Positions 17,728-19,441 of a stretch of 64,000 bases of DNA are shown here, in pieces (position 1 is the first letter of the stretch; every line of letters starts with the position of its first letter). Position numbers and translations under genes: made by a program. The DNA is from Nitrospirales bacterium (GTDB taxonomy: Bacteria; Nitrospirota; Nitrospiria; Nitrospirales; UBA8639): contig OY820905.2 in assembly GCA_963555755.3 (NCBI GenBank), forward strand, positions 1,120,001 to 1,184,000. Direction: 5' to 3'. The notes under the pieces are model-generated. The model saw only the letters and a list, made by a program, of their open reading frames with translations. It had not been told where the DNA came from and did not search any database.

Positions 17728-17824
17728 TAAGCTGGGCCTGTTGAATACCTCACCCCAATATCCAAATAAAAACTCCAGATGAGCCAAGCATCGTCAATTG
17801 AAGGGAATGTTCAAAAAGCATGCC

Positions 17825-19040
17825 CTTGTATAATGCAAGGAAGGGTTGTAGCCCAACTCACACGAGCTGCCTCTTGTCTGAAGAGGGCATAGCCAACGTA
17901 GGGAAAAGGCTGTACCCTCACGGTATTGTGAATCCTGGCATGATAGACCGTTTGCCCTATGGGAATCAGCCCGTGACTCAGCGCAGGTCGTCATGCCCTT
18001 TCTCTGATGAACCCGAACGGTTGCCTGGGACACCAAGCCCGTATCAACAAGGTTGGGAGACAGAGCGATGAAATCAAAATCCTCAGAATTGTTTATCGGT
18101 ATCGACATTTGTAAAGCTCGATTAGACGTGGCAGACAATGCCAATTCGCTTCCCTGGTCGGTAGCCAACAACGACGCCGGCATCGCCGCGCTGGTGGAGC
18201 GGCTCCACGTCCTTCACCCCACTCTCATCGTGATGGAAGCCACAGGGGGGCTGGAAACGCTTCTGTATGCGGCCTTAACCACCGCCGGGTTGCCGGCGGT
18301 CGTCATGAATCCCCGTCAGGTGCGGGACTTTGCCAAGGCCCTGGGCACCCTGGCCAAAACCGATGCCCTGGACGCCCGAATCTTGGCGCGCTTCGGGGCG
18401 GCGATCCAACCGGTGGTCCGGCCCATGAAAGACGCCACCACCCAGGAATTGACGGCCTTGGTGACACGGCGACGGCAGTTGCTTGCCATGCAGACGGCGG
18501 AAAAAACCCGCCTCCAGCAAGCAGCCAAATGGATCCGCAAAGACATCAACGCTCATATCAAAGCCCTGGAAAACCGAATCAAACAAATCGAAGGCCACAT
18601 TGCCGAGATTATTAAAAAAACCCCCGGATGGAAAGAAAAAGATTCGCTCATTCGAAGTGTGCCTGGTGTGGGCAACGTCTTGTCAATGAATCTCCTCAGT
18701 AGCCTGACCGAACTCGGGACGCTCAACCGAAGAGAAATCGCCACGCTGGTGGGCGTCGCCCCCTTAAACCGCGACAGTGGAAACGTTCGCGGCAACCGAA
18801 GGGTCTGGGGAGGACGGGCCCAAGTCCGCGCCGCCCTCTACATGGCGGCCCTGTCCGCTTCACGATTTAATCCGGTCATCAAACCCTTTTACCAACGCCT
18901 ACTTGAAAAAGGGAAAAAACCCAAAGTGGCCCTCACCGCCTGTATGCGAAAACTTCTGGTCATTCTGAATACGATGGCCAAAACCCAAACAGCATGGAAC
19001 CCCAATCAATATTCAACCCTTGACTTTAATCACGGTTGCT
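17825..19040 (+). mobile_element. IS110-family element (IS621-like), copy 1
   Basis: CT core at 17825-26 and 19039-40; no TIRs; ~240-bp non-coding left end. Confidence 0.92.
17841..18067 (+). ncRNA. IS110 bridge RNA (predicted; ends approximate)
   Basis: Two internal loops carrying GTTTGCCCT / GACTCAG (target guides) and ACGGTTGC / ACAAG (donor guides); TATAAT at 17829. Confidence 0.85.
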
Positions 19041-19042
19041 GA
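18068..19042 (+). CDS. IS110 recombinase (DEDD RuvC-like + Tnp domain)
   Basis: [36 protein letters not shown]. Confidence 0.96.
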
Positions 19043-19441
19043 GTCTTTCCGAAGGGTCTATCCAGTCCTGTCCTGAGCAGAGTCGAAGGAAAGGCCGCAG
19101 CCGTTTTGACGCGCGGAGCGTACTCATAGTACGTGAGCACGGCAAAAGGGCGACCTGCCTACGCGAAACCGCTTCGGCAGGCAGGGAACGCCGCTGGCTT
19201 GTCAGCCGTAGCTTTAGCGAAGGCTGGCGGCTTTTTTCAACATTCCCAAGCTGTCTAATTCGTTGACTCTGTGTGGAGGTCAGATCCTGAAGAGTGCCGG
19301 CGGCAATTTCCTCGTAGTGAGGCCTAGACCATTTCAAGGCTCGCTGGATTTCGAACCAGAATCGATTCTGAATGGAAAGAAGTCGTAGGAAAGGAGAAAT
19401 AATAAGGACGCTTCATGCCTGAAGAAAGGCTCATGAGCTAT

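Follow-up and report, generated by a model that had tools for sequence, protein, structure and literature searches.

We found that all copies of an IS110-group insertion sequence (IS) in the genome sit at one fixed CT, inside a 24-bp module that is carried by a multicopy MITE. The copies very probably stem from separate insertions, each guided by a bridge RNA that we predict in the left end of the element. The window analysed is a 64,000-bp stretch (C1:1120001-1184000) of a source genome of 4.62 Mb that is 99% complete; positions without a contig prefix are those of the window.

Architecture of the composite locus

The composite at 17734-19247 was read directly on the plus strand. It is preceded by the left copy of its 5-bp target duplication, AAGCT (17729..17733), and begins with a 69-bp MITE left arm (17734..17802), the variable part of the family, which opens with the outer terminal repeat GGGCCTGTTGAA. 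The inner terminal repeat GGGAATGTTCAAAAA (17803..17817) of a hairpin element of about 122 bp follows, and then the left half of the 24-bp module (17818..17826), which is the left target and ends on the CT core at 17825-26. The IS occupies 17825..19040 and measures 1216 bp with both CT cores counted. The right half of the module, i.e. the right target, lies at 19041..19056, and a second, unoccupied module of the TGTCCTGAGCA type at 19067..19090. The locus is completed by the core of the hairpin element (19091..19153), centred on GGAGCGTAC-N5-GTACGTGAG at 19115-37, by two additional short hairpin inserts that are missing from most family copies (19154..19185 and 19199..19223), by the MITE right terminal repeat TTTTTCAACATTCCC (19233..19247) and by the right AAGCT (19248..19252).

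A second composite of MITE, module and IS110 (IS at 51754-52969) lies at 51663..53150 on the same strand. Direct reading of both bore out the three layers proposed in the sequence-only reading, an IS110 in a module in a MITE. That each composite carries its own 5-bp duplication also held: TGAAG at 51658-62 and 53151-55 surrounds the second one. As claimed, CT is found at each end of both IS copies, which split GCATGCC[CT]GAGTCTTTCCGAAGGG, and the left arms have diverged (58% alike); between the two IS copies, 39 of the 1216 nt are different. Two long-form MITE copies in the window have neither module nor IS, at 39804..39993 (plus strand, duplication AAAAT) and 21075..21265 (minus strand, duplication TTCCA). 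Their earlier reads were reproduced. In the copy at 17734, the A-run has five A, not six. The module described as palindromic and about 25 bp long is real, with a net insert of 24 bp (the inner element measures 146 bp with it and 122 bp without; one G is common with the empty allele), and the word palindromic is loose for a stem of 4 bp (-1.6 kcal/mol as DNA). The related module reported as unoccupied was likewise present, with three mismatches against the guides described below, and its span was corrected from 19066-90 to 19067-19090.

An Rfam scan of 17500-21400 returned tRNA only; the tRNA gene at 19445-19528 (minus strand) lies about 200 bp downstream of the composite. Elsewhere in the window, a near-identical two-ORF element is present in three copies (390-2137, 2304-4051 and 37414-39161), two of them in tandem. 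Its first ORF carries DruA-like and DDE_Tnp_1-associated domains and its second a DDE_Tnp_1 domain. Tandem 18-bp repeats were seen in or near ORFs at 20355-20498, 22919-23211 and 24544-24800.

The IS110 element and its copies

The element can be placed in the IS110 group of the IS110 family by its domains, key residues, upstream non-coding region, CT cores and guide matches. Its recombinase gene (18068..19042) encodes 324 aa with PF01548 (E 2e-23) and PF02371 (E 1.3e-17), corresponding to DEDD RuvC-like and Transposase_20 domains, and close homologues are named in the sources as Nitrospirota or Nitrospirales proteins. Among 36 homologues, D13, E57, D99 and S237 were invariant and D102 nearly so. 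We take these residues, which were also aligned to ISCro4, to be the D, E, D, D and S of the catalytic site. Upstream of the gene are 241 nt of non-coding sequence, and the gene finishes at the right end of the IS, its stop codon extending into the target. No inverted repeat between the two IS ends was detected by eye.

The genome holds 13 IS copies: 11 are complete, one (C1:2149029) is without its right end and is followed by another mobile element, and one (C1:1572761) is without its left end. In all 11 complete copies the CT core is present at both ends, and it is single in the empty target. A genome-wide search for copies in unrelated sequence found none. AAAAAGCATGCC stands before each of the 12 left junctions and GAGTCTTTCCGAAGG after each of the 12 right junctions. 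The occupancy list for the genome comprises 13 occupied modules and 81 intact empty ones, the intact target TGCCCTGAGTC being expected about 2.3 times from base composition; 76 of the 81 adjoin the MITE repeat. None of 61 near-miss hairpins of the TGTCCTGAG type, to which the module at 19067-90 belongs, is occupied (Fisher P 0.002, for copies that are not independent).

The right end of the IS (19020..19040) runs from TTGACT, a putative -35 box at 19020-25, through the CT core at 19039-40. Its predicted partner in a circle is the -10 box TATAAT at 17829..17834. Joining the ends at CT would yield TTGACT-17 bases-TATAAT, a predicted promoter across the junction. Scanning the linear locus for promoters gave no relevant hit, which is what one would predict of a promoter that forms only when the ends are joined in a circle. 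Contigs from 4 of the 24 listed sequencing runs (contigs only) list no back-joint of an IS circle. Contigs of RNA libraries cover the IS, though contigs cannot show transcription.

A predicted bridge RNA matches the module

The left end of the IS folds with two internal loops, target first and donor second, and both guides are unpaired or mostly so; as a whole it folds no better than shuffles (z -1.22). A segment at 17937..17997 is marked out by fold and covariation. The first loop holds TTTGCCCT and GACTCAG, and the corresponding target sequences are CATGCCCT and CTGAGTC. The left guide gives six matches, one wobble and one mismatch with CATGCCCT, and the right guide pairs with CTGAGTC at 7/7 positions. 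The second loop, predicted to bind the donor (18017..18051), faces the element's own ends: ACGGTTGC at 18017-24 matches the right end and ACAAG at 18047-51 is complementary to the left end. A perfect site for the left guide does not occur in the genome. Four sites where the wobble match is better (CCTGCCCTGAGTC) are all empty, as is the one other site that lies outside the MITE context; these are too few to judge.

We compared guides and targets across 180 homologous loci. The right end could not be parsed in 21 loci and the loop in 34 others; the remaining 125 gave 48 distinct right guides once duplicates were collapsed. On average 4.6 of the 5 non-core bases of the right target were matched by the right guide; 38 of the 48 guides were perfect and five matched at three bases or fewer. 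Shuffling guides against targets gave a mean of 1.47 and a maximum of 2.02 (5000 shuffles), showing that guide and target covary. For the left guide, the comparison covers close relatives, a handful of homologues. In two of these, L105 and L106, the left guides TTTTGTCCT and TTTCCCCCT go with the targets GCCTGTC[CT] and GTCCCC[CT], respectively. The close relatives L003/L191, whose guides have changed, sit in TAACC[CT]GAGCCC. The sister IS110 elements of genome G002 (L004/L195 and L025) have the guides TTGTTCCT and GGCTCAG and sit in GAGTTC[CT]GAGCCATC. Taken together, these matches suggest that the left end holds a bridge RNA with a target loop fitted to the module. Such a guide RNA, which the sequence-only reading had not named, would explain both why the IS inserts where it does and why the module at 19067-90 is empty.

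This genome also contains the repeat family in which the sister elements of G002 insert, for instance at window 48667-48760 and 62791-62884; it has 25 GTTCCTGAGCC sites genome-wide. No such sister IS was found in this genome.

In the mechanism that we propose, the MITE would have moved first, by the action of a transposase, creating the 5-bp duplications and offering some 90 harmless landing sites. The IS would leave in circular form, with TTGACT and TATAAT brought together 17 bases apart as a promoter, and the RNA expressed from the 241-nt left end would bind the recombinase. The left guide would then pair with CATGCCCT, the right guide with CTGAGTC and the donor loop with the circle junction, and recombination at CT would insert the element.

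The same site in related genomes

The empty target was present in 7 of 60 relatives searched, with 59 copies in G005 and 22 in G011. Five genomes were chosen for carrying the target, and four of them yielded seven matches to the left end of the IS. Five of the seven share the guides of the element and occupy the corresponding site of the module, again within the MITE (one in G002, two each in G005 and G011), so that the nesting of IS in module in MITE recurs in three related genomes. The remaining two have changed guides and other targets. Further afield, the same hairpin type holds 17 of the 142 homologous loci with a readable right flank, two of them in the opposite orientation. These 17 come from Nitrospinia, Dehalococcoidia and metagenome contigs, several being from the same genomes or close kin.

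The MITE family

The repeat is a MITE by its terminal inverted repeats, its many copies and its target duplication. It ends in GGG(C/A)(C/A)TGTTGAA, inverted at both ends (outer terminal repeats of the GGGNCTGTTGAA type), and has a non-coding body, with a length of about 190-215 bp. We parsed 229 copies, including 89 long-form rows. An exact 5-bp duplication flanks 58 of the 89, and 12 more have one mismatch, against 0.5% of random pairs; duplications are present with or without module or IS. An autonomous transposase partner was found neither at 25 DDE loci nor among 72 repeat-bounded, duplication-flanked spans of this genome. The inner 122-bp hairpin was compared with the enterobacterial 127-bp repeat (ERIC), and blastn searches of E. 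coli genomes returned nothing beyond 26-bp matches (E 4).

Several MITE copies have themselves received insertions. An IS1595-type element, of which the genome has 38 full copies (with PF12762 at window 33779-34723), lies inside the left arm of two of them (C1:4003053-4006220 and C1:3591625-3592640); one of these insertions is a tandem array and forms a fourth layer in the composite at C1:4006295. A non-coding element of 360-380 bp, whose ends are inverted and whose 11 copies are 84-98% alike and apparently flanked by 7-8-bp duplications, lies at C1:282677-283055, in the A-tract of the inner repeat of a module-bearing MITE. The MITE copies at C1:2353013-2354440, 1269541 and 813808 have CGTAT, TGTAT or AGTAT duplications and common flanks. 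They sit at one site of another repeat family, and the IS-bearing one is therefore four layers deep. In the composite at C1:1957200 (minus strand), the part of the right arm that separates the module's CGAAGG from the CGAAGG of another hairpin insert is missing, with the ends and the duplication ATTTG intact.

The 24-bp module

The module family TG(C/T)CCTGAG-N-CGAAGG has 142 strict matches in the genome. As an insert of 23-25 bp without duplication it recurs at several positions in the hairpin element and in another repeat family, and for six module sites the exact empty 16-mer is present 5 to 48 times. Among long-form MITEs (69 with the module and 20 without), its presence follows no arm-lineage pattern, with 17 changes on the arm tree vs 18.3 after shuffling; 6 of 95 arms with poor alignment had been dropped beforehand. 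A linked variant, GTCTATCCA, follows 46 of 58 modules. It is absent from all 23 module-free long copies, which rules out precise excision of the module as their source. The module was probably gained once or a few times and then passed around by exchange of the inner element among copies, rather than being excised repeatedly. Such exchange is likely because module and linked variant both look shuffled across arm lineages.

We asked whether the module belongs to a known class of short palindromes. CGTC-tagged REPs, in the available part of Di Nocera et al. 2013 (PMC3733652), are defined by a terminal CGTC/TGTC tag and a stem of 8-9 bp; like the module they are short palindromes without a linked tyrosine transposase, and REPs are reported there within larger palindromes. 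The module starts with GCATG or CCTG, has a 4-bp stem and falls outside this definition. A RAYT-linked REP did not fit either, as the module was found near 2 of 17 PF01797 loci, on one side only. Several Y1 tyrosine transposase genes of about 310 aa are present in the genome and are not flanked by the module; one Y1 gene, at window 26671-27606 (minus strand), has a weak match to the DnaA C-terminal helix-turn-helix. In sequence the module resembles the inner part of a few TGTCAT-tagged hairpins of the genome, to which it may be related. At least three other short hairpin inserts (about 25, 25 and 30 copies) recur in the same repeat family, and one of them opens with the same GCATGCCC as the target module and is never occupied by this IS.

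It is conceivable, though we lean somewhat against it, that the CCTGAG-N-CGAAGG module of 24 bp is mobile in its own right, as an ultra-small element moved by some other factor. Clean, duplication-free inserts at no fewer than six repeat-family sites with exact empty alleles point in this direction, as do the IS110 guides tuned to the module across phyla and in both orientations.

How the copies spread

Comparison of the MITE and IS phylogenies, which the sequence-only reading had suggested, favoured homing. In a tree of left arms, which rests on 68 bases and is weakly resolved, seven of nine IS-bearing arms have an IS-free nearest neighbour, and these arms are thus polyphyletic. The IS label required 7 changes on this tree vs 7.7 when shuffled, with mean identities of 0.67 vs 0.69 (two rows were dropped before permutation). 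The left arm at C1:2405142 is identical to those of two empty copies. Conversely, the IS copies at C1:2334789 and 2405165 are 1 nt apart, with left flanks that are 44% alike. Because IS-bearing arms are scattered and near-identical IS copies lie in unlike MITEs, separate insertions into resident MITEs appear to be the main route.

The IS110 could instead have travelled as cargo of the MITE, so that few insertions, or a single one, were followed by spread of the 1.4-kb composite by the MITE transposase. Such movement would agree with the 9 of 11 complete composites that retain both ends and an exact 5-bp duplication (seven of the long form, one of the short form and one whose arm is interrupted by IS1595-type copies), but IS-free copies have exact duplications just as often (51 of the 81 rows classed as modA or empty). 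It would also agree with C1:344224 and C1:2353104, which are mutual nearest neighbours: their left arms have one difference in 68 (99% alike), their right arms two, and their IS copies three plus a 6-bp deletion, with duplications AATAT and CGTAT. This resemblance is within chance (permutation P 0.10 for top identity and 0.18 for neighbour count), and another IS that is equally close, at C1:1893156 with 2-3 differences from the pair, has a short-form MITE as its host. Outside the pair, IS-bearing arms are 37-80% alike, whereas IS copies are 94-99.9% alike. We therefore consider cargo movement a very unlikely general explanation. A composite may occasionally have moved as a whole, as in this pair, where such a move is not needed to account for the data; of homing and cargo, the two options offered earlier, homing is favoured.

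IS copies could also have passed between MITEs by gene conversion or homologous recombination through common flanks, without guided transposition each time. The shuffling of the module and its linked variant among arm lineages speaks for exchange of this kind, and the IS copies appear mosaic. As the source of the IS copies it is nonetheless highly improbable: homology to the left of the site extends for about 25 bp only, IS-bearing copies do not share one right arm, guides change together with their targets across phyla, and no swapped duplications were found among the 16 copies lacking one.

We give practically no credence to the idea that the module halves are the true IS ends and the 24-bp modules excision footprints, for although the flanks are identical around every copy in the genome, the CT cores are the ends to which the predicted donor loop and junction promoter point, homologues with the same ends have unrelated flanks, and modules are present in the relatives G018, G030 and G051, incomplete genomes in which no homologue passed the protein search.

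Comparison with known systems

The nesting has a close counterpart in Coxiella burnetii, where, according to the accessible text of Wachter et al. 2018 (PMC5896051; restated in PMC10969869), the GTAG REP of QMITE2 houses 20 of the 21 copies of IS1111. There too an IS110-superfamily element sits in a small palindrome in a MITE with unique direct repeats, empty copies remain, and nearly all IS copies use that site (20/21 there, 13/13 here). From what these sources state, the Coxiella element belongs to the IS1111 group, its REP is GTAG-tagged, the repeats are 7-11 bp and the MITE is mostly of the small form. The element described here is of the IS110 group with an upstream guide region, its untagged 24-bp module is optional in the MITE, the duplications are 5 bp and the MITEs are mostly full-length.

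IS621 and ISCro4 (PDB 8wt6 and 9t56) share the same two domains (E 1.5e-33 and 1.1e-36), the CT core, the junction promoter, described for IS621 in the available portion of PMC11208160, and a left end with target loop then donor loop. The protein here is distant from theirs, the right guide is 7 nt and the left guide apparently 8 nt, and the target lies in a MITE, not in the E. coli REP; insertion of IS621 at REPs is reported in the part of PMC3184786 that could be consulted. ISPpu10 of Pseudomonas putida, as far as the accessible bioRxiv text goes (10.64898/2026.03.19.712850), is an IS110 element with a CT core and a multicopy palindromic repeat as target. Its left guide is tolerant at distal positions and its right guide strict, and the occupied and empty modules here suggest the same; its target hairpin lies 5' of the core, whereas here the core is inside the 5' arm of a weak hairpin. 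IS4321/IS5075, which target Tn21 terminal repeats, and the IS1111-attC group are, in the portion of PMC11187229 seen, IS110-superfamily elements that also target another mobile element, but they are of the IS1111 group and their targets are transposon ends or cassette sites.

Our literature search, which covered openly accessible main texts, found no paper on this IS element, MITE or module; the target tables of PMC11208160 and PMC11187229 may include this target. We regard the element as a new member of the IS110 group whose target repeat is also new. The surprise is a modest one, because the architecture had already been described in Coxiella QMITE2.

Implications

The finding exposes the question of what inserts 24-bp modules. 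If the module is mobile, it would seed landing pads that the MITE multiplies and the IS follows, a three-level dependency, and the drift of guide and target could be read from one genome. For bridge-RNA specificity, this near-complete genome offers a natural data set of 13 used, 81 free matching and 61 near-miss sites, together with sister elements of 83-89% protein identity whose guides are directed to the same or different repeats. An RNA-guided element can thus avoid genes by riding a repeat that a second element multiplies.
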